Notes: generated by a model from the sequence alone, not told the origin. Shown: positions 678 through 21,929, counted from the first letter of the stretch. The stretch: DNA of 51,179 bases from Candidatus Saccharimonadota bacterium (GCA_031973215.1 DALYDK010000002.1:10097-61275), one strand, 5' to 3'. Numbers and translations are program-made.

Positions 678-1490
678 TCACACATTATGAGGAGTATAAA
701 CCGAGATATTCTCCTCATTTTTCATCGCTAGTCGTGCTAGCTGAATAGTTGTGTGACTTTTCATTGATATGCTTGATTCAAAAATTTCGGTAATATAGAT
801 CCCGCTGACAGCGGTCACACGACTGTTTAATTTATCAAAAATGTTGCCTGATATAAATAATTGATCGTCTGAAAGTTCTACAGTTTTCATATTAAGGTCA
901 GCAATTCGTTTTTTTAGTTCCAATGTATCCCAATATACCTTTTTATTTGGCATGCTATTTGTATCTATCCATTCGGTAGCAGCCCATGATTGAACTGATT
1001 CATAGAAAGCTTTTTCTGCGGCAGAACCTGAGTCTTTTGAGCACCCTCCGCCAAGAACTACATATGGATATTTGTTATCATTAAGCAATATGCTGCATGC
1101 AACGTAATAACCCGAACAGGCAGATTCTACAAAACCGATGTTTACAGAATAATTTTCAGGTATAGTTAAATTGTTCCTCATGAGCATAAGTTTTATCAGT
1201 TCGTTAGAAAGCTTTGCGACAAAAGACCTTTCACATGACCACCAAGCGGCTAAGGAGATTCTTTCAATTGCCTCGCACTTAGCATTTTCAATAGATAATT
1301 TTTTGCTTTCATGTGCCGCAGAAGCAAACACTGCTTTATCAATAACAAAATCCATCTCGGCTCTTTCCATAGCAACCCTTGTAACCAAATCGCTAATTTT
1401 TGTACCAGTGGAGCACGGCCTGAATCCGCTATTGATATCCATTCTAACTGTTTTGACTGCCTCAAATGGCGTATCGATTATTTCATACAT
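678..1490 (-). CDS. Miniature YcaO-family protein (about 270 aa; ORF track extends to 1547)
   Basis: YcaO-like glutamate motifs VAMERAE, SAAHES..NAKCEAIER and GGGCSKD..AAEKAFYESVQ; C-terminus TPHNV. The upstream in-frame ATG at 1547 lies inside a GC-rich hairpin, so ATG 1490 (MYEIID) is preferred. Confidence 0.7.
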   Translation of the reverse strand: MYEIIDTPFEAVKTVRMDINSGFRPCSTGTKISDLVTRVAMERAEMDFVIDKAVFASAAHESKKLSIENAKCEAIERISLAAWWSCERSFVAKLSNELIKLMLMRNNLTIPENYSVNIGFVESACSGYYVACSILLNDNKYPYVVLGGGCSKDSGSAAEKAFYESVQSWAATEWIDTNSMPNKKVYWDTLELKKRIADLNMKTVELSDDQLFISGNIFDKLNSRVTAVSGIYITEIFESSISMKSHTTIQLARLAMKNEENISVYTPHNV

Positions 1491-1511
1491 ATTTCTAGCC
1501 AAAGCATTTTT

Positions 1512-1549
1512 GCTTGGGTCGGGCGAAGACAACTTCACCCGACCCAAGC
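1512..1549 (-). other. Long GC-rich intergenic stem-loop (17 bp including one G-U, 4-nt loop)
   Basis: Minus strand GCTTGGGTCGGGTGAAG-TTGT-CTTCGCCCGACCCAAGC; followed by AAAAA rather than a U-tract. Confidence 0.8.
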
Positions 1550-1559
1550 TTTATGACCA

Positions 1560-2069
1560 CTAAGCGGTCATGAGGTTCGCGGGCGCGAACATCTGTGCGA
1601 ATTTAGCTTGCCACACAGTAGTCTTGATAAGACTATCTAGCGCTGCAACGAAGTTGCTCGTAAGGGCTGGATCTCGCCAAAGCGACTGCTGCAGCGAGTC
1701 GCCGACAACAAGTGCCTGTAAATCCATACGAGCCACCGAAACCTTATCAGCAGCTTCAGCGATCAGTTTCTGCTGTTCGCTAAAGTCTACTATAGGTTCA
1801 GAGATGTACGACCAAAGCGTCGCAACGGTGCCTATTCTGTTCTTGGCCTCAGAGAGAGCTTTCTCACTAGCGCCAAGGAACTGAATCGCTTCCGATAGAG
1901 CACCGTCACTAATTATCGAATCTTCAATGGCAATATTTGCATCGAAGAACTTGGCCGATCCATCAAACAATGCCCTGCAATAACTCGCAAGCTGTTTGGT
2001 GTATTCTTCGAGAAACTGGGCAGAGGCATTAGCCCCGCCGTTTCCGCCAGCACAATTGATTCCTCCCAT
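1560..2069 (-). CDS. Hypothetical 169-aa protein with Gly/Asn/Cys-rich N-terminus and predicted helical body
   Basis: Perfect SD GAGGAGGT (2077-2084) 7 nt before ATG 2069; begins MGGINCAGGNGGANASAQ; hand-counted 60-nt lines are 43-57% GC. Confidence 0.8.
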   Translation of the reverse strand: MGGINCAGGNGGANASAQFLEEYTKQLASYCRALFDGSAKFFDANIAIEDSIISDGALSEAIQFLGASEKALSEAKNRIGTVATLWSYISEPIVDFSEQQKLIAEAADKVSVARMDLQALVVGDSLQQSLWRDPALTSNFVAALDSLIKTTVWQAKFAQMFAPANLMTA

Positions 2070-2130
2070 GGTAATCACCTCCTCGGGAGAATGTAGTTAC
2101 GATAAGGGAAAGTCTCCCAAATCTAAATGA

Positions 2131-2159
2131 AGAATAAAACAAAGAATATATATTGTCAA
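2131..2159 (-). promoter_or_regulatory. Sigma70-type promoter for the 169-aa gene
   Basis: TTGACA (2159-2154), 17 nt, TATTCT (2136-2131). Confidence 0.6.
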
Positions 2160-2168
2160 TTATATAAT

Positions 2169-3782
2169 TCAGTCAGATATATCAATTGAATTAGTGACAC
2201 CAATATTATTGACAAAATCTCTATCATGAGACACTAGTAAAATACCTCCTGGATAATTTAATAAAGCATTTTCAAGAGCTTCTATAGCCGGTATATCTAG
2301 ATTGTTTGTTGGCTCATCGAGTATCAATAAACCACTATTTTGAGCTGATATACTAGCTAGCAGAATCTTGGCGCGCTCACCGCCACTCAAAGCTCTGGAT
2401 GGGATTGTACTAAGAATATCCTTTTTTAGGCCGAACTTAATTAATAGGTTTATTGCATCATGAAGTTCCAGTGATGGCGAAAGCTCCCGAAGATTAGCGA
2501 GAGCAGAACCATCAATAAGCGGTAAAGTCTGATTTTGATCAATATATACTGTGTTAGCTTGCCTGCTAAGATAAACATCACCCATGCTCATTTCGTTAAC
2601 GCCCAAAATTCCCCTTATAATTGATGTTTTGCCAGAACCATTTTTGCCCTTAAGTAGCACCCTTTCTCCGGAGCGAATAGAAAACGAGATGGGGCCGATT
2701 TTATGACAATCACCATAGTCGACCTCTAAATTAGAAACTGAAAGTAGATTAATTCTTTTTTCGATTTCATTGTTGAATCCAAATTTTAGTGAAACATCCT
2801 CTTCTGGACGTTCAGGTTCCTCAAGGTGATCAAGGCGGCTGCTGATACTAACTGCGGCACTCGCAAGGCCGTTAGCTGCTTTTTCTTTACGGAAATGTGA
2901 CGTAAGCTTGTCATTATCACTATATGAACTATTAGAACCTGCCGAATTAGCCTTTACTCTTGCTGCTCTAGATGCTTTTTGTAACCTTTTTTTTTCTTTT
3001 TCGAATTGTTCGTAACGCTTAAAAGTAGCTTGCTTGGCATTCTCTCTGGCTTCAATATATTCGTCATATCCAAGACCAAATTGCTTAACTCCTTGGTCGC
3101 CACCCATTAACTCAATTATCCTACTCGTTGCATTTCTTAAAAACCTTCGATCATGAGATACCATTAAAAAAGCTGCCTTGGAACCTTCTATGAATTTTTC
3201 GAGTACTACAACTCCGCTATCATCAAGATTGTTGGTAGGCTCATCAAGAAGAACAACATCATAGCGGGAGGCAAATACAGCAGCTAGCGCAATACGCGTA
3301 CGCTGACCGCCAGAAAATTTACCAATTTCCTTATCTGTATCTATCATAGCAATATCAGCTCTTTTAAGGGCTTTTTCAAGATTGGATTCGAATGATGCTA
3401 CTTCAAATTTATCATATCGCTCAAGTGCATCAGCGTATAAGAGAAGCGTCCGTTCACTCTCAAAATTTTCGAGACTGGCACATTGTCTATCGAACTGTTC
3501 TCTGACCTCTTTTACGCCTGTAACTTCTTCTATAAATCCATAAACAGTATGATCAAACCAAGCACGCATATCCTGAGGTAGCATTCCTATTTCTTCATTG
3601 GTACGTATAATATCTCCGGAAGTTGGCGTTATGTCGCCATTGATTAATTTTAATAGTGTGGTTTTTCCGGCACCATTCGGTCCAACAAGTCCAATTTTTT
3701 CTCCACTATTAATCGAAAAGGAGACATTGTTAATGATCTCCTTCCCGTTTTTCTCATAATTTACATTATTGAGACTTATCAT
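2169..3782 (-). CDS. ABC-F family ATPase (two NBDs, no membrane domain)
   Basis: Walker A GPNGAGKT and GKNGSGKT, signatures FSGGQ and LSGGE, Walker B LLDEPTNNLD and ILDEPTNNLD, long interdomain linker; start placed at MISLNNV (ORF track 3815). Confidence 0.92.
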   Translation of the reverse strand: MISLNNVNYEKNGKEIINNVSFSINSGEKIGLVGPNGAGKTTLLKLINGDITPTSGDIIRTNEEIGMLPQDMRAWFDHTVYGFIEEVTGVKEVREQFDRQCASLENFESERTLLLYADALERYDKFEVASFESNLEKALKRADIAMIDTDKEIGKFSGGQRTRIALAAVFASRYDVVLLDEPTNNLDDSGVVVLEKFIEGSKAAFLMVSHDRRFLRNATSRIIELMGGDQGVKQFGLGYDEYIEARENAKQATFKRYEQFEKEKKRLQKASRAARVKANSAGSNSSYSDNDKLTSHFRKEKAANGLASAAVSISSRLDHLEEPERPEEDVSLKFGFNNEIEKRINLLSVSNLEVDYGDCHKIGPISFSIRSGERVLLKGKNGSGKTSIIRGILGVNEMSMGDVYLSRQANTVYIDQNQTLPLIDGSALANLRELSPSLELHDAINLLIKFGLKKDILSTIPSRALSGGERAKILLASISAQNSGLLILDEPTNNLDIPAIEALENALLNYPGGILLVSHDRDFVNNIGVTNSIDISD

Positions 3783-3936
3783 ATTCACATATTCTATCTT
3801 CTTTGATCTGATCAAGCAACAGATAATGTTCAGATATAATTAGCGCTAAACTTTTAGCTAATAACACCGTTGAATCCATCTGTATGTAGTTATGCAAATA
3901 AAACGCAACAAGTTAACAGATCGATACAATAAATAT

Positions 3937-3972
3937 AACAAAAAGACCCTAAAAAATTAGGGTCTTTTTGTT
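3937..3972 (-). terminator. Intrinsic, probably bidirectional, terminator downstream of tRNA-Leu
   Basis: Perfect 16-bp inverted repeat aacaaaaagaccctaa-aaaa-ttagggtctttttgtt. Confidence 0.85.
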
Positions 3973-4057
3973 TGGTACGCGAGAGAGGACTTGAACCTCC
4001 ACGCCTTGCGGCACTAGCTCCTAAGGCTAGCGTGTCTACCAATTCCACCACTCGCGC
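3973..4057 (-). tRNA. trnL: tRNA-Leu(TAG)
   Basis: GCGCGAG/CTCGCGT acceptor stem, D-loop TGGTAGA, anticodon loop CTTAGGA, long variable arm, GGTTCAAGTCC T-arm, encoded CCA. Confidence 0.97.
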
Positions 4058-4077: not shown

Positions 4078-4106
4078 ATTGTACAGTCCGAGGCATTAAA
4101 TTTCAA
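4078..4106 (-). promoter_or_regulatory. Promoter of tRNA-Leu
   Basis: TTGAAA (4106-4101), 17 nt, TACAAT (4083-4078). Confidence 0.65.
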
Positions 4107-4923
4107 TAACTGCAGCCAAGCACGCTTGACCAATCTTTTTTCTCTTGTCTGCAAGCATTGCAGCCATTTCGAGCGTATTACTTCCCTCTTCAACTACACG
4201 TCTTATGTCTTCATAAACATTTTTATCACCCATTAGATCCGGCTTTACGGGTCCACTAAGCATAACCACCATATCACCCTCTTTTGCTTCAATTGGCGGA
4301 TGTGGTGCAATATCCACACCTTCTTCTCCCATAACTGGCATTAGAACATCTCCATCGTTATCGACATGTTCAACAAAAAGTGGTTCTATTTTTTCTTCAG
4401 CATAATCTTTAGGAACTTTAAAAGCCATGCCTTTACCGAGATTTGCTGAGACTATAAAATTTCTATGTTTTTCGCCGTCCTCAACTCGTCGAATTATTCT
4501 TACTAAAGCTGCCGAAGCAAGTGATTGAGTAATTTCTGCCGTTTGATTTTTCTGATAAATTACACTATGCGCTTGATCAATTTTTAATGATAAATTATCT
4601 ACAGCGTGAGGCAGCTCGCCTACTTCGTCTACATTGAGATATAAACCATGAGAAGATACGCTTTTAGCATGAGAAGCTGCCCAGGTGTTTTCCTCGTCCG
4701 TGTGATGAGCATGAAAAAGTCCATAGACCTCATCCCCGCCGGGTAAAGGTTTATGCAAAAATGAAATCTCATTATCTAGCGGGTTAGGACCATAAACGAC
4801 AACGGCATGCTTATCTTTTTTCTCGAAAATGCCTTCAATAGGCTGCTCTTCAGTCCAGCCGTTTTTTCTTACTTCGTGGGGCGTTAGGCCTTCTGCTAAT
4901 TTAAGTCCGCTAATTTCCTTCAA
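4096..4923 (-). CDS. Hypothetical protein, PP2C/SpoIIE-like fold with degenerate active site
   Basis: Ordered pattern YGLFHAHH / LASAALV / SANLGKGMAF / EGDMVVMLSGP / GQACLAAVIEI parallels PP2C motifs DGHGG / TT / NxGDSR / GDxxxLxSDG / DNxTxxxx. Confidence 0.5.
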   Translation of the reverse strand: MKEISGLKLAEGLTPHEVRKNGWTEEQPIEGIFEKKDKHAVVVYGPNPLDNEISFLHKPLPGGDEVYGLFHAHHTDEENTWAASHAKSVSSHGLYLNVDEVGELPHAVDNLSLKIDQAHSVIYQKNQTAEITQSLASAALVRIIRRVEDGEKHRNFIVSANLGKGMAFKVPKDYAEEKIEPLFVEHVDNDGDVLMPVMGEEGVDIAPHPPIEAKEGDMVVMLSGPVKPDLMGDKNVYEDIRRVVEEGSNTLEMAAMLADKRKKIGQACLAAVIEI

Positions 4924-19424: not shown

Positions 19425-21929
19425 ATGAAAGTAAAAAGGCTTTATGATGCCTTTGCTCCAAGCAGCTATAATCTTAACTTAAAAATCAACAAGACTAAGT
19501 TAGTTTTTAGTGGCAAGGTGCGCATTAGTGGAATTGTTAAACAAAAAAATATATCTCTTCATGCGAAAGACTTAACTATAAAAAAAATAGAAGTTAACGG
19601 CACTGACATTTCTTACAAGAATAATATTGACGACGAACTTTGTATTAATAAAAGTTTTTCGGTTGGTGAACAGCTCGACTTAAATATTTCGTTCGAAGGC
19701 AAAATAACAAAACCTATGCACGGAATTTATCCCAGCTTTAACAAAGATGGCTCAACGATTATATCTACTCAATTTGAATCTCATCATGCCAGAGAAGCCT
19801 TTCCCTGCATAGATGAGCCAGAAGCAAAAGCTAGCTTTGACCTAACTATTGAATGCGAAAGCGGAAACGCTGTACTAGGCAACATGCCGGTGGCAGAACA
19901 AACTTCAAAAGGCAATATGTTGATTACAACTTTTGAAACATCACCAGTAATGAGCTCATACCTACTTGCATTTGTGATTGGCGATCTACAAAAAATAAGT
20001 GGCTCAACCAAAAATGGCACCATTGTTTCAATTTGGTCTTCTAAAGATCATCCCAAAAGCAACCTGAAGTTTGCCCTTGAAAGCGCTATAAAGTCTACTG
20101 AATTTTTCAATGACTATTTTCAAACAGATTATCCGCTTCCCAAGTGCGATCATGTTGCGCTGCCGGATTTTTCATCTGGAGCTATGGAAAACTGGGGATT
20201 AATAACCTACCGAGAAGTCTGCTTACTTGTCGACAGCAAAAAAACCTCTACGGCCACAAAAGAATATGTTGCGCTTGTTATTGCTCACGAAATTTCTCAT
20301 CAATGGTTTGGGAACCTGGTCACAATGCGCTGGTGGGATGATTTATGGCTGAATGAAAGTTTTGCTACCTTAATGGAATATTTAGCAGTAGATCACTCTT
20401 ATCCGGAATGGAATATATCTTTATCATTTGCTGCCCACGAAGCACTTGGTGCATTCAGAAGAGACAGCTTGAACGGAGTTCAGCCTGTTAAGTCTGAGGT
20501 TAATCATCCCGATGAAATAAGCACATTGTTTGACCCATCGATTGTCTATGCTAAAGGAGCTAGGTTATTGCTTATGGCCTACCACATAGTAGGCGAGAAA
20601 AGCTTTAGAAAAGGTCTTAAAAACTACTTTGCTAAATATGCTTATAAAAATGCCGAGGGCGATAATTTATGGGATGAGCTTTCGGAAGCTTCTGGCATTG
20701 ACCTAAAAACCATTATGAATACCTGGATTAAAACTCCCGGATTCCCGGTATTAGAAGTTAAATTATCAAAAGATGATAAAGAAATAGTTTTAAGTCAAAA
20801 TAAATATACTTTAGACAACTCAAAATCCAAAGATCTTTGGCCTATACCCCTTTTTGATAGTAAAAATTCTAAAATAATTTTTAACCAAAAAACCAACGAG
20901 TTTGCAGAATTTGATTCTTCGACCCTGTTTAATCAAAAGGGCGGACACTATCTCGTAAAGTACTCAAATTCTAAAACTAAAGATTTAATAAAAGAAAAAA
21001 TAATGAATAATCAACTCAAAGAAACAGAAAAATTATTTTATCTTAATAATCTTAATTTAGAGGCGCGAAACGGCCTAGCAAGTATGGTGGATTTTATGGA
21101 TGTCATAGATGCCTATAAAAACGAGACTGCAGAACCAGTTTGGAGCGTACTTTCAGTAGGCCTATCAGACGCAAAACGCATTATTGAAGGCAATGAAAAA
21201 GCCGAAAAAAAAGAAAAATTATTTGTTTATAGCATCGTCAAAGAACAACTATCGAGGCTTGGATGGACAAAAAAACAAGATGAACCTTCTAATGACACCA
21301 AGCTTAGAGATTTAATTATTGCACTAGCGGTCTACAGCGAACATCCCGATATTGTTGCTAAAATCAAAAAGTTATATCACGATAAAGGCATTAATCAGCC
21401 CGCTGAGCTTAGGGGCTCAATCCTATCGGGTGTTGTGAAACATTCTGGCAAGAAAGTATTTAAAGAGCTTCACGAATTGTATCCTAAGCAAACAAATAGT
21501 GATTTAAAAAACGATATATCATCGGCATTATGCAGCACAAAGAGTCCGGAGCTGGCGGAAATATTATTAAAATCTATAAAAGATAGTTCCTGGGTAAAAC
21601 TTCAAGATGTCGATAAATTTATTGTGCATCTTTTAGCGAATAAATTCACCAGAGCAACCGCCTGGAAATGGCTAACCAATAACTGGGGTTGGATAGAGAA
21701 GAATTTTGCGAGCGACAAGTCCTATGACCACTACCCAAGATATGCAGCAAATTGCTTTAGCAACCAAGAGTGGTATGACCGTTACAAAAAATTCTTCGAG
21801 CCAAAGAAGGATATTGTGTCGCTCCGCAGAAACATTGAACTTGGCGAAAAAGAGATTGAAAATAAAATAAGATGGTCCGAGCGAGACAAAGAAAAAATGA
21901 TTAACTGGCTAACAAGCTTAGTTGTTTAG
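19425..21929 (+). CDS. pepN: M1-family aminopeptidase (PepN/ERAP-like)
   Basis: GAMENWG, HEISH-x18-E (WLNES), ERAP1-like C-terminal region; SD AAGGA. Confidence 0.93.
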   Translation: MKVKRLYDAFAPSSYNLNLKINKTKLVFSGKVRISGIVKQKNISLHAKDLTIKKIEVNGTDISYKNNIDDELCINKSFSVGEQLDLNISFEGKITKPMHGIYPSFNKDGSTIISTQFESHHAREAFPCIDEPEAKASFDLTIECESGNAVLGNMPVAEQTSKGNMLITTFETSPVMSSYLLAFVIGDLQKISGSTKNGTIVSIWSSKDHPKSNLKFALESAIKSTEFFNDYFQTDYPLPKCDHVALPDFSSGAMENWGLITYREVCLLVDSKKTSTATKEYVALVIAHEISHQWFGNLVTMRWWDDLWLNESFATLMEYLAVDHSYPEWNISLSFAAHEALGAFRRDSLNGVQPVKSEVNHPDEISTLFDPSIVYAKGARLLLMAYHIVGEKSFRKGLKNYFAKYAYKNAEGDNLWDELSEASGIDLKTIMNTWIKTPGFPVLEVKLSKDDKEIVLSQNKYTLDNSKSKDLWPIPLFDSKNSKIIFNQKTNEFAEFDSSTLFNQKGGHYLVKYSNSKTKDLIKEKIMNNQLKETEKLFYLNNLNLEARNGLASMVDFMDVIDAYKNETAEPVWSVLSVGLSDAKRIIEGNEKAEKKEKLFVYSIVKEQLSRLGWTKKQDEPSNDTKLRDLIIALAVYSEHPDIVAKIKKLYHDKGINQPAELRGSILSGVVKHSGKKVFKELHELYPKQTNSDLKNDISSALCSTKSPELAEILLKSIKDSSWVKLQDVDKFIVHLLANKFTRATAWKWLTNNWGWIEKNFASDKSYDHYPRYAANCFSNQEWYDRYKKFFEPKKDIVSLRRNIELGEKEIENKIRWSERDKEKMINWLTSLVV

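Follow-up and report, generated by a model that had tools for sequence, protein, structure and literature searches.

An invariantly tagged protein and a minimal YcaO enzyme encoded side by side in Saccharibacteria: a candidate substrate–enzyme pair next to an ABC-F ATPase

Does a YcaO enzyme of only 270 amino acids modify the protein encoded next to it? The question is raised by a contig stretch of 51,179 nucleotides (nt) from Candidatus Saccharimonadota, hereafter the window, in which positions are counted from the first letter. The genes for a tRNA-Leu, an ABC-F ATPase, a protein of 169 amino acids and a protein of 270 amino acids are all co-oriented there on the minus strand. The original prediction, made from the sequence alone, had read the three protein-coding genes as a candidate system for making a peptide that is synthesized ribosomally and modified after translation (RiPP) or for modifying a protein. 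The elements of the module that it had noticed are all present on the minus strand, at or very near the places where it had put them. They are listed here with those added by the present analysis.

2169 to 3782, minus strand: ABC-F ATPase (two matches to Pfam ABC_tran, and NF000355); the open reading frame extends from 2169 to 3815, with the likely ATG at 3782
2131 to 2159, minus strand: sigma-70-like promoter of the tagged-protein gene, TTGACA-17-TATTCT, right after the ABC-F stop codon
2106 to 2118, minus strand: small leader stem-loop, GGGAG/UUCCC, near the 5' end of the tagged-protein mRNA
2078 to 2082, minus strand: Shine–Dalgarno (SD) sequence GGAGG of the tagged-protein gene, 8 nt upstream of the ATG at 2069
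2052 to 2069, minus strand: invariant tag, codons 1–6, Met-Gly-Gly-Ile-Asn-Cys
1560 to 2069, minus strand: tagged protein of 169 amino acids ('MID'), comprising the tag, a Gly/Pro-rich tether of ~15 residues and a four-helix bundle
1553 to 1571, minus strand: small hairpin found by folding, in or beside the loop of which the tagged-protein gene has its TAG stop codon
1512 to 1549, minus strand: 17-bp G+C-rich stem-loop between the tagged-protein and YcaO genes, with an A-rich rather than U-rich tail
678 to 1490, minus strand: minimal YcaO of 270 amino acids (family alignment, AlphaFold2 model and Foldseek)
3973 to 4057, minus strand: tRNA-Leu with its canonical U-tract terminator (3937 to 3972), which adjoins the module and is not part of it

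We propose, with slightly less than even confidence, that the tag at the N-terminus of the 169-amino-acid protein is modified by the minimal YcaO encoded next to it; the bundle of this protein would dock on the enzyme, and its tether would set the reach of the tag.

The tag is the most conserved block of the presumed substrate. Translation from the ATG at 2069 gives an N-terminus that reads MGGINCAGGNGGANAS, followed by a long helical body. Among all relatives retrieved, 78 are tagged homologues, and the tag takes the form M-G-G-x-N-C in 78/78 of them, with Ile (66), Val (9), Gln (2) or Lys (1) at the variable position, whereas the bundle drops to 31–38% identity while the tag remains unchanged. 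It stands at the annotated start in 74 of the 78 and behind a probably mis-called start in the other four. Synonymous codon differences are found at every tag position except the Met start codon, and selection therefore acts on the peptide and not on the DNA. In the six frames of 359 kb, each locus contains the pattern GG[IVKQ]N[CP] a single time, where it is expected, and one further match is due to chance. The residue after the Cys is Pro in 41/78, Gly in 24/78 and Asn in 8/78, and three of the 78 proteins carry a duplicated NCNC; the ancestral N-terminus is MGGINCPPP. The tether that follows is of low complexity and spans 9–23 residues (median 15), with 17% Pro and 14% Gly, that of the window being rich in Gly, Asn and Ala rather than Pro. 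An AlphaFold2 model of the 169-amino-acid protein (pLDDT 84) places residues 1–14 in a disordered segment, with the tag below a pLDDT of 50, and the remainder in a four-helix bundle (~12–159). Sequence and model thus bear out the description, in the original prediction, of a short segment beginning MGGINC on a helical body.

The protein itself belongs to no described family. It has no match in Pfam, NCBIfam or PADLOC, a fold search against the PDB and a viral structure library returned generic helical bundles only, and a profile search of the PDB gave no match. Its relatives form 34 clusters among 5.8 billion proteins, none of them named, and number 72 among 1.84 billion representatives in an exhaustive HMMER search. 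A lipoprotein or signal peptide was rejected, as the six residues up to the Cys are too short and lack a hydrophobic segment. A known defence system was likewise discarded after PADLOC gave no match for the tagged protein or the YcaO. A mobile carrier was also set aside: tblastn gave no match in 72,556 plasmids for the tagged protein of the window or the untagged relative P0123, and none in 50,697 phages for the YcaO of the window. Two further proteins of 243–244 amino acids (P0127 and P0128; L028, 179–910), encoded on short contigs, start with MGGINC and continue into a different, longer C-terminal region.

We are confident that the 270-amino-acid protein has the YcaO fold, and its predicted structure is closest to those of archaeal thioamide-forming YcaOs. 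The in-frame ATG at 1490 fits the length of its homologues (263–272 amino acids). A search with the Pfam YcaO profile (PF02624), which had been suggested as a check, gave a divided answer, in that the window copy scores 24.9 bits, just under the cutoff of 25.7, and aligns to positions 120–240 of 325 only, while 19/24 relatives carry a precomputed match. The AlphaFold2 model, built from 16 family members (pLDDT 85.6; predicted template modelling score 0.88), shows the YcaO fold: Foldseek aligned it with 30 solved YcaO chains at E <= 1e-3 with a probability of 1.00. The best match is the Methanopyrus kandleri YcaO (6ci7/6cib, E = 3.8e-8, TMq 0.64–0.66), followed by McbD, LynD, TruD, Methanocaldococcus jannaschii YcaO and Escherichia coli YcaO.

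Invariant positions in the family alignment comprise G29, M41-E42-x-x-E45, E73-x-x-E76-R77, W83-W84, V145-L-G-G-G-C150, E164-S-x-Q167-S-W and Y-W-D at 186–188, and the C-terminus FTPHN is conserved in the family form [VF][FY]TPHN[VLMF]. MusD is the sole solved structure reached by the sequence profile, at a non-significant E of 0.08; in the alignment of the two, ExxER..WW corresponds to the second canonical YcaO motif and GGGC..E..Q to GxGx..E..Q. The first canonical motif (GxG...ExxER) was assigned by eye to G29..A-M-E42-R-A-E45. As the first two motifs lie ~27 residues apart, compared with ~125 in MusD, the enzyme is short of about 95 residues that the canonical domain has. The invariant acidic residues expected to hold ATP and Mg nevertheless appear to be kept, and by analogy the enzyme would activate a backbone amide in an ATP-dependent manner. 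In the E. coli enzyme, E202 is essential, and the E202A substitution abolishes activity (PMC13063428). A profile search of the PDB with the N-terminal part alone gave no match, and the antibody light-chain matches of the full profile were judged spurious. Two invariant Cys, C26 (FRPC) and C150 (GGGC), lie right beside the ATP-site motifs; they are unusual for YcaO enzymes and could have a role in sulfur transfer or redox control.

The two genes travel together, and with the ABC-F. The order ABC-F, tagged protein, YcaO is found in every lineage with readable context, about ten in Saccharibacteria (the window, L004, L007, L010, L012–L017, L021, L023, L025 and L036), and homologues of the tagged protein neighbour both other genes in almost all lineages, as anticipated. 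Identity across the loci is 43–79% for the ABC-F, 32–65% for the tagged protein and 37–53% for the YcaO. The identity rankings of the three genes are broadly congruent, and thus they were inherited together. The flanking genes are unrelated from lineage to lineage, and an arrangement that recurs with different flanks is far beyond chance. The tagged-protein and YcaO families are of similar size (34 and 30 clusters), and a scan with one genome per species (185,579 species) recovered nine loci, eight labelled Saccharibacteria/TM7, among them the oral taxon HOT-348, and one Nomurabacteria. A putative enzyme–substrate pair, specific to Saccharibacteria and vertically inherited, is the best explanation for the core of the locus.

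The module is also subject to loss. In three gut-derived loci (L001–3), a deletion that begins exactly behind the tagged-protein stop codon has removed the YcaO gene, the DNA up to that point being 90% identical to L012. In L010 (4995–5820) and L011, it is split by a frameshift. In L022 (1194–2361), the tagged-protein gene is frameshifted and the YcaO truncated, the sister contig L021 being intact. L026 (3–875) has the gene for an IS30-like transposase 22 nt upstream of the start of the tagged protein, where L025, identical in other respects, has the promoter and the ABC-F gene. These four cases of decay or disruption indicate that the module is accessory. The ABC-F is intact in L001–3 and L010 and in the portion on the L022 contig, whereas L026 begins inside the transposase. 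In L001 (6515–7010), as in L002 and L003, the stop codon of the tagged-protein gene has itself been lost, resulting in a product of 196 amino acids, and a tRNA-Gln now follows.

A split counterpart of the tagged protein occurs elsewhere. About a dozen representatives of ~155 amino acids keep the bundle motifs (Y..xA.YC..LF, AN..xE, LQ..IW and WQ..FA) and have no tag or tether. A metagenome scan for such untagged relatives, following one that had found nothing, added L032–L036, and genomic context was read for three lineages (L027, L029–31 and L032–35). None of the three has an ABC-F or YcaO nearby. In all three, the bundle gene overlaps a downstream gene for a transporter of the major facilitator superfamily (MFS), and a mini-open reading frame (mini-ORF) of 15–29 codons with a strong SD, encoding ...GGINPRPxP..., lies just upstream, at a gap of 3 and 12 nt in two lineages and ~40–45 nt in the third (L032). 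The peptides of the three lineages are MIKALGGINPRPNPK; MNKTHATRGGINPRPRPFPPK (longer in L030); and MNKNSKRGGINPRPRPYPHMI. The mini-ORFs are located as follows.

L027, 482 to 529: mini-ORF
L030, 5899 to 5988: mini-ORF (a shorter variant in L029)
L032, 3890 to 3955: mini-ORF

Fusion of mini-ORF and bundle by read-through or recoding of TAG was rejected, as TAG ends ordinary genes in those loci, the L029 peptide ends early in another register and L032 has two stops. The G+C content of 44–55%, together with an antigen I/II surface adhesin encoded on one of the contigs, indicates that the hosts are probably Gram-positive bacteria rather than Saccharibacteria. The GGIN element thus occurs either fused to the bundle or as a separate peptide, apparently co-translated with the bundle protein, and the residue that follows it is Cys where a YcaO is present and Pro where it is absent.

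The control regions suggest how much of each product is made. The own promoter and perfect SD that had been ascribed to the middle gene are both there: TTGACA-17-TATTCT at 2159–2131 agrees with the consensus at 10 of 12 positions, and GGAGG lies 8 nt ahead of the start codon. Among 15 distinct intergenic regions between ABC-F and tagged-protein genes, most carry TTGAC(A)-17/18-TATGAT/TATAAT at the same place, the exceptions being L004, where it is not evident, and L025, where it is incomplete. The leader hairpin GGGAG/UUCCC is the consensus fold of eight related leaders, and divergent lineages have a different hairpin at the same leader position. Most lineages combine a near-consensus promoter with a hairpin close to the 5' end and with AAGGAGG, the spacing of which from the start codon is ideal. 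Upstream of the SD in the window, UCUCCC is able to pair with GGGAGG of the Met-Gly-Gly codons (2061–2090) or, alternatively, to compete with the GGGAG of the 5' hairpin; no covariation was seen, and the pairing might be a switch that affects initiation.

At the other end of the gene, the 17-bp stem-loop at 1512–1549 proved real and is upheld by compensatory changes. An 81-nt segment containing it folds at -46.3 kcal/mol (z = -8.3), with 0/200 shuffles as stable. All eight of the other lineages that were tested have an equivalent hairpin (z between -2.6 and -8.6), the stems of which fall into five unrelated sequences. Six sequences could be aligned; in these, compensatory double changes affect 5 of the 17 pairs and pairing holds in 95% of cells, compared with 0–1 compensatory pairs in slid controls. 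Its tail is A-rich and not U-rich, although the same genome has a normal U-tract terminator after tRNA-Leu, and it is therefore likelier to be a stability element or partial attenuator than an efficient terminator. The smaller hairpin around the stop codon has equivalents of different sequence in most lineages, including L004, L012, L021 and L023, and its non-coding 3' arm changes together with the coding 5' arm between lineages. An Rfam search of the window for a known RNA family behind the hairpins matched the tRNA only. The YcaO start has no recognisable SD in the lineages read. Thus, from promoter, SD, hairpins and the SD-less YcaO, we infer an abundant substrate and a scarce, catalytic enzyme, and the suggestion that the hairpin raises the ratio of precursor to enzyme fits its conservation. 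Together, these signals would describe a message that is stable, monocistronic and expressed at a very high level, with little read-through to the YcaO.

The tagged-protein gene is also distinguished by its base composition, with a G+C of 0.50 overall and 0.51 at third codon positions (GC3), compared with a GC3 of 0.31 ± 0.03 for 41 other open reading frames of the window. This had been taken as a sign that the genes may not be co-inherited, a view that does not survive comparison with the orthologues: GC3 is 0.50–0.92 in 7/8 lineages, compared with 0.24–0.50 for both neighbouring genes, and since the excess persists across lineages it does not reflect a recent transfer. Horizontal acquisition was rejected on this ground and on that of the broadly congruent identity rankings. 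The excess is seen in the orthologues of L004, L007, L010, L012, L021 and L023, and is strongest in L023, where it reaches 0.92 compared with ~0.45. Codon optimisation and mRNA stability are both possibilities, and the raised GC3 counts, with the promoter, SD and hairpins, among the signs of an expression design that speak for the proposed pair. An overlapping antisense gene was rejected as the cause; an open antisense frame is confined to the cases of highest GC3, 3–4 stops being present in the window and L007 and 18 in L025, and the open frame is a by-product.

The ABC-F lies directly upstream of the tagged-protein gene in the Saccharibacteria loci read. It has two ABC domains, a conserved inter-domain linker and no membrane domain, an architecture shared by the factors EttA, Uup, YbiT and YfmR and by the antibiotic resistance (ARE) proteins VmlR, Vga, Msr and Lsa. 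It passes the generic 'ribosomal protection-like ABC-F' model NF000355 (401 bits, cutoff 380). However, it differs from ARE proteins in that it falls far short of the cutoffs of all the named families (Vga, Msr, Lsa, Sal, OptrA and producer type; 182–267 bits, cutoffs 680–1450), and comparison with the PDB places it about equally distant from Uup, EttA, VmlR and YbiT. Across the loci it is better conserved than the tagged protein and the YcaO, linker included. Self-protection by an ARE-type ABC-F, part of the original prediction, thus becomes an assumption, since no ARE family fits, its conservation is higher and the gene survives where its neighbours decay; a housekeeping translation factor would account for this pattern no less well than an immunity protein. 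We regard it as a probable ribosome-binding translation ATPase, the one tie of which to the pair is the conserved gene order, which argues for some link.

Anatomy, conservation, co-occurrence, YcaO fold and RNA structures are shown by the sequences and models, whereas the role of the tag as substrate, the chemistry and the expression ratio are inferred from them. How the pair would work may be pictured as follows. The 169-amino-acid protein would be produced in quantity from its own promoter, with its 5' hairpin, perfect SD and strong 3' hairpin, and the downstream YcaO, lacking an SD, in small amounts via read-through. The four-helix bundle would serve as a built-in docking, or 'follower', domain, and the tether of ~15 residues would bring the disordered tag (M)GGxNC into the active site of the YcaO, which would activate one of the backbone amides of the tag at the expense of ATP. 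Attack of the Cys6 thiol on the Asn5 carbonyl would be the likeliest reaction, resulting in a thiazoline (-18 Da), which is probably formed at Asn5-Cys6. Such a cyclodehydration is attractive because a thiazoline is a five-membered backbone ring that would be much like proline. Alternatives would be a thioamide (+16 Da), an N-terminal macroamidine or an ATP-dependent cleavage, the last recalling MusD, a YcaO that cleaves peptides (PMC10885120). The correlation of Cys and Pro with the presence of the YcaO, together with the NCNC variants, favours the thiazoline, the closest folds in the modelled comparison favour the thioamide, and a bottromycin-like macroamidine is compatible with the strictly N-terminal spacing of four residues. 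A modified protein, and not a free peptide, is the likeliest product. An N-terminal core with a follower, as originally proposed, remains a reasonable reading of the substrate; a released RiPP is not favoured over a modified protein, the latter being at least as likely because no protease or exporter is conserved and the body is conserved and folded.

The apparent constraint on tether length speaks for the modification of the tag by the YcaO, and several observations weigh against it. Contact between the two proteins is putative, and both are acidic, so that the charge complementarity of the EcYcaO–uL16 type is missing. The mapping of ATP-site residues follows motif alignment rather than structural superposition and is to be taken as provisional. 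The tag is kept where the YcaO is deleted or frameshifted (L001–3 and L010/11), losses that look recent. The GGINP peptides occur without a YcaO, and therefore the motif has a function independent of YcaO chemistry. As regards a thiazoline in particular, features of azoline-forming enzymes are missing (the C-terminal PxPxP, an E1-like partner or one with a RiPP recognition element (RRE), and a TIGR03604 score of 34 compared with 219 bits), and the best fold matches are thioamide-forming enzymes.

The presumed pair resembles several known systems in part. The thioamide-forming YcaOs of M. kandleri (6CI7/6CIB, McrA glycine) and E. coli (uL16) likewise stand alone without an E1-like partner, and these enzymes modify whole folded proteins, McrA and uL16, through their tertiary structure (PMC13063428). 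The presumed substrate of the module is also folded, and gene adjacency together with the modelled bundle suggests that the mini-YcaO may act on such a protein. However, these enzymes are ~365–590 amino acids long, compared with 270 here, where ~95 residues between the first two ATP-site helices are absent. In contrast to McrA and uL16, the presumed substrate is encoded next door, its target is a disordered N-terminal tag and not an internal loop, and the pair lacks acidic–basic complementarity. No TfuA adjoins the module in loci with context, which does not exclude thioamide chemistry because TfuA-independent cases exist (PMC13063428).

By comparison, the mini-YcaO does not belong to the azoline-forming thiazole/oxazole-modified microcin (TOMM) cyclodehydratases of the SagD type, of which the C-terminal PxPxP motif is the defining feature: it has no such motif, and TIGR03604, matching residues 77–193 only, stays far below its cutoff at 34.2 bits. 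Neither an E1-like or Ocin-ThiF-like RRE partner nor a dehydrogenase lies within 5–6 kb in any locus, and no protease, exporter or further tailoring enzyme is conserved beside the triad in the loci read, in agreement with the caveats of the original prediction. Closer in layout is bottromycin (BotC/BotCD), in which an N-terminal core starting with Gly after Met removal is joined to a C-terminal recognition element, as may also hold for the module, and in which the YcaO works without a partner, as presumed for the mini-YcaO. Four residues precede the ring-forming position of the bottromycin macroamidine, the same count as before the Cys of the tag. However, the bottromycin follower is a peptide of ~35 residues and not a conserved four-helix bundle of 150. 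The module, with its single YcaO, cannot be classed as bottromycin-type, as the loci lack every tailoring enzyme: Met aminopeptidase, follower hydrolase (amidohydrolase), radical S-adenosylmethionine methyltransferases, cytochrome P450 and exporter.

A structured, protein-sized domain that engages an azoline-forming YcaO through protein–protein contacts, as proposed here, is known from nitrile hydratase-like leader peptides (NHLP), and a YcaO cyclodehydratase recognises such protein-like leaders (PMC12455567). In NHLP precursors, however, the domain is N-terminal, the core is C-terminal and Cys-rich and the enzyme is a full-length TOMM cyclodehydratase, whereas the module has one Cys, rarely two, at the N-terminus. 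MusD, unlike the mini-YcaO, is a multidomain cyanobactin enzyme of 784 amino acids that acts as an ATP-dependent peptidase and trims a C-terminal dipeptide (PMC10885120).

Class II bacteriocin operons, which combine a small peptide, an immunity protein with a four-helix bundle and a transporter, offer a lead for the split relatives, with their Gly-Gly peptide of 15–29 amino acids, helical bundle of ~155 amino acids and transporter. The split relatives differ in that the segment before Gly-Gly has only 5–8 residues, no C39 peptidase is found and the transporter belongs to the MFS and not to the ABC type; their bundle exceeds bacteriocin immunity bundles in size and is unrelated in sequence.

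Other explanations of the locus have to be set against modification of the tag. It is unlikely that the YcaO targets another protein, such as a ribosomal protein or the ABC-F itself, and that the tagged protein is an accessory factor, for instance a sulfur carrier with a Cys6 persulfide on a flexible arm that replaces TfuA or ThiS in thioamide formation. The proposal draws on the closest folds, which are TfuA-independent thioamide-forming methanogen YcaOs, on the established thioamidation of uL16 near the peptidyl transferase centre, the sulfur donor of which is unknown (PMC13063428), on the ribosome-binding ABC-F next door, and on the pairing of a single invariant Cys on a flexible tether with an enzyme that has two invariant Cys beside its ATP-site motifs. 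However, a carrier needs neither an invariant GGxN before its Cys nor a strictly N-terminal place, the expression design points to a product far exceeding the enzyme in abundance, and the change of Cys to Pro in the motif of the untagged relatives is inexplicable for a sulfur carrier. A little more doubtful still is a full RiPP, in which the modified tag, with or without the tether, is cut off and strikes the ribosome, the bundle being follower or carrier and the ABC-F or MFS transporter giving protection. Antimicrobial peptides with PRP repeats bind the ribosomal exit tunnel, and the proline-rich ancestral GGINCPPP and free GGINPRPRP(F/Y)P resemble them. The subfamilies pair with an ABC-F or an MFS transporter, the classic answers to tunnel-binding inhibitors, and the module is accessory and often lost. 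Many YcaO products, including bottromycin, klebsazolicin and phazolicin, target the ribosome. Against a released peptide stand the missing protease, exporter and tailoring enzymes beside the triad, the Gly/Asn/Ala-rich tether of the window, the strong conservation of the bundle as a folded domain, and an ABC-F that is outside the ARE families and stays intact where the other two genes decay.

Translation itself may be at issue. There is a small probability that GGIN(C/P) followed by Pro or Gly is an arresting or hard-to-translate nascent peptide, that the ABC-F relieves the ribosome and that the YcaO is not tied to the tag. Housekeeping ABC-F proteins help ribosomes past proline-rich stretches and resolve stalling there (PMC10895253, PMC11381351), the tag is followed by Pro in 41/78, often as PPP, and by poly-Gly in 24/78, and the split-system mini-ORF abuts the bundle gene or lies ~40–45 nt upstream of it. 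However, synonymous variation with fixed residues and swaps from a Pro-rich to a Gly-rich tether are more in keeping with a flexible spacer, the gaps of 3–12 nt between mini-ORF and bundle gene hold no attenuator structure, and the strict co-occurrence of Cys and YcaO would be left without a reason. Inherited synteny of three unrelated neighbours without shared function is very improbable: Saccharibacteria genomes are small and densely packed, and the ABC-F forms its own transcription unit and evolves more slowly, but the triad stays together down to 43% ABC-F identity while its flanks differ, the YcaO and tagged protein have matching, very narrow distributions, and the intergenic RNA structure is under selection. 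Finally, we give a low probability to the joint proposal that GGIN(C/P)-Pro peptides and their bundle partners form an unrecognised peptide system of Saccharibacteria and Gram-positive bacteria, in which the peptide, free or tethered, engages the exit tunnel or peptidyl transferase centre, a YcaO-made thiazoline acts as a proline surrogate, and the ABC-F or an MFS pump provides self-protection. If true, an epibiont of ultra-small size would possess a weapon or regulator that is directed at ribosomes and made on a protein scaffold.

Modification of the tag by the mini-YcaO would be unusual for a YcaO-dependent system in its truncated enzyme, its co-encoded protein substrate with an N-terminal tag and its split counterpart elsewhere. 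To our knowledge, YcaO enzymes are known mostly from peptide natural products, and McrA and uL16 are the only established protein substrates; the pair would thus be the third of this kind, and encoded side by side. We know of no YcaO smaller than 270 amino acids, and the enzyme could help to establish the smallest catalytic core with which the family can work. The module is carried by an epibiont of the Saccharibacteria, the genome of which measures ~0.7 Mb. Each accessory gene retained there is probably of importance for life on the host of the epibiont, and almost no lineage-specific genes of Saccharibacteria have an assigned function. Full-text searches on YcaO or ABC-F in Saccharibacteria, and on YcaO together with ABC-F, found no description of the module. 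A wider, undescribed peptide-and-bundle biology is suggested by the split form, in which a GGINP mini-ORF accompanies an untagged bundle and an MFS transporter.

The surroundings of the module are peculiar to the window. The adjacency of tRNA-Leu, which the original prediction had included in its description, has no parallel beside the module in 15 other loci, and the tRNA was therefore rejected as a component of the system. A 275-amino-acid protein without a family match (4096–4923) and a multi-pass membrane protein of 208 amino acids with a weak DUF4013 match (3–629) flank the module in the window and are not kept beside it elsewhere. The only peptidase noticed in the window, unlinked to the module in other loci, is an M1-family aminopeptidase of 834 amino acids, the gene for which (19425–21929) lies 17 kb off among housekeeping genes.

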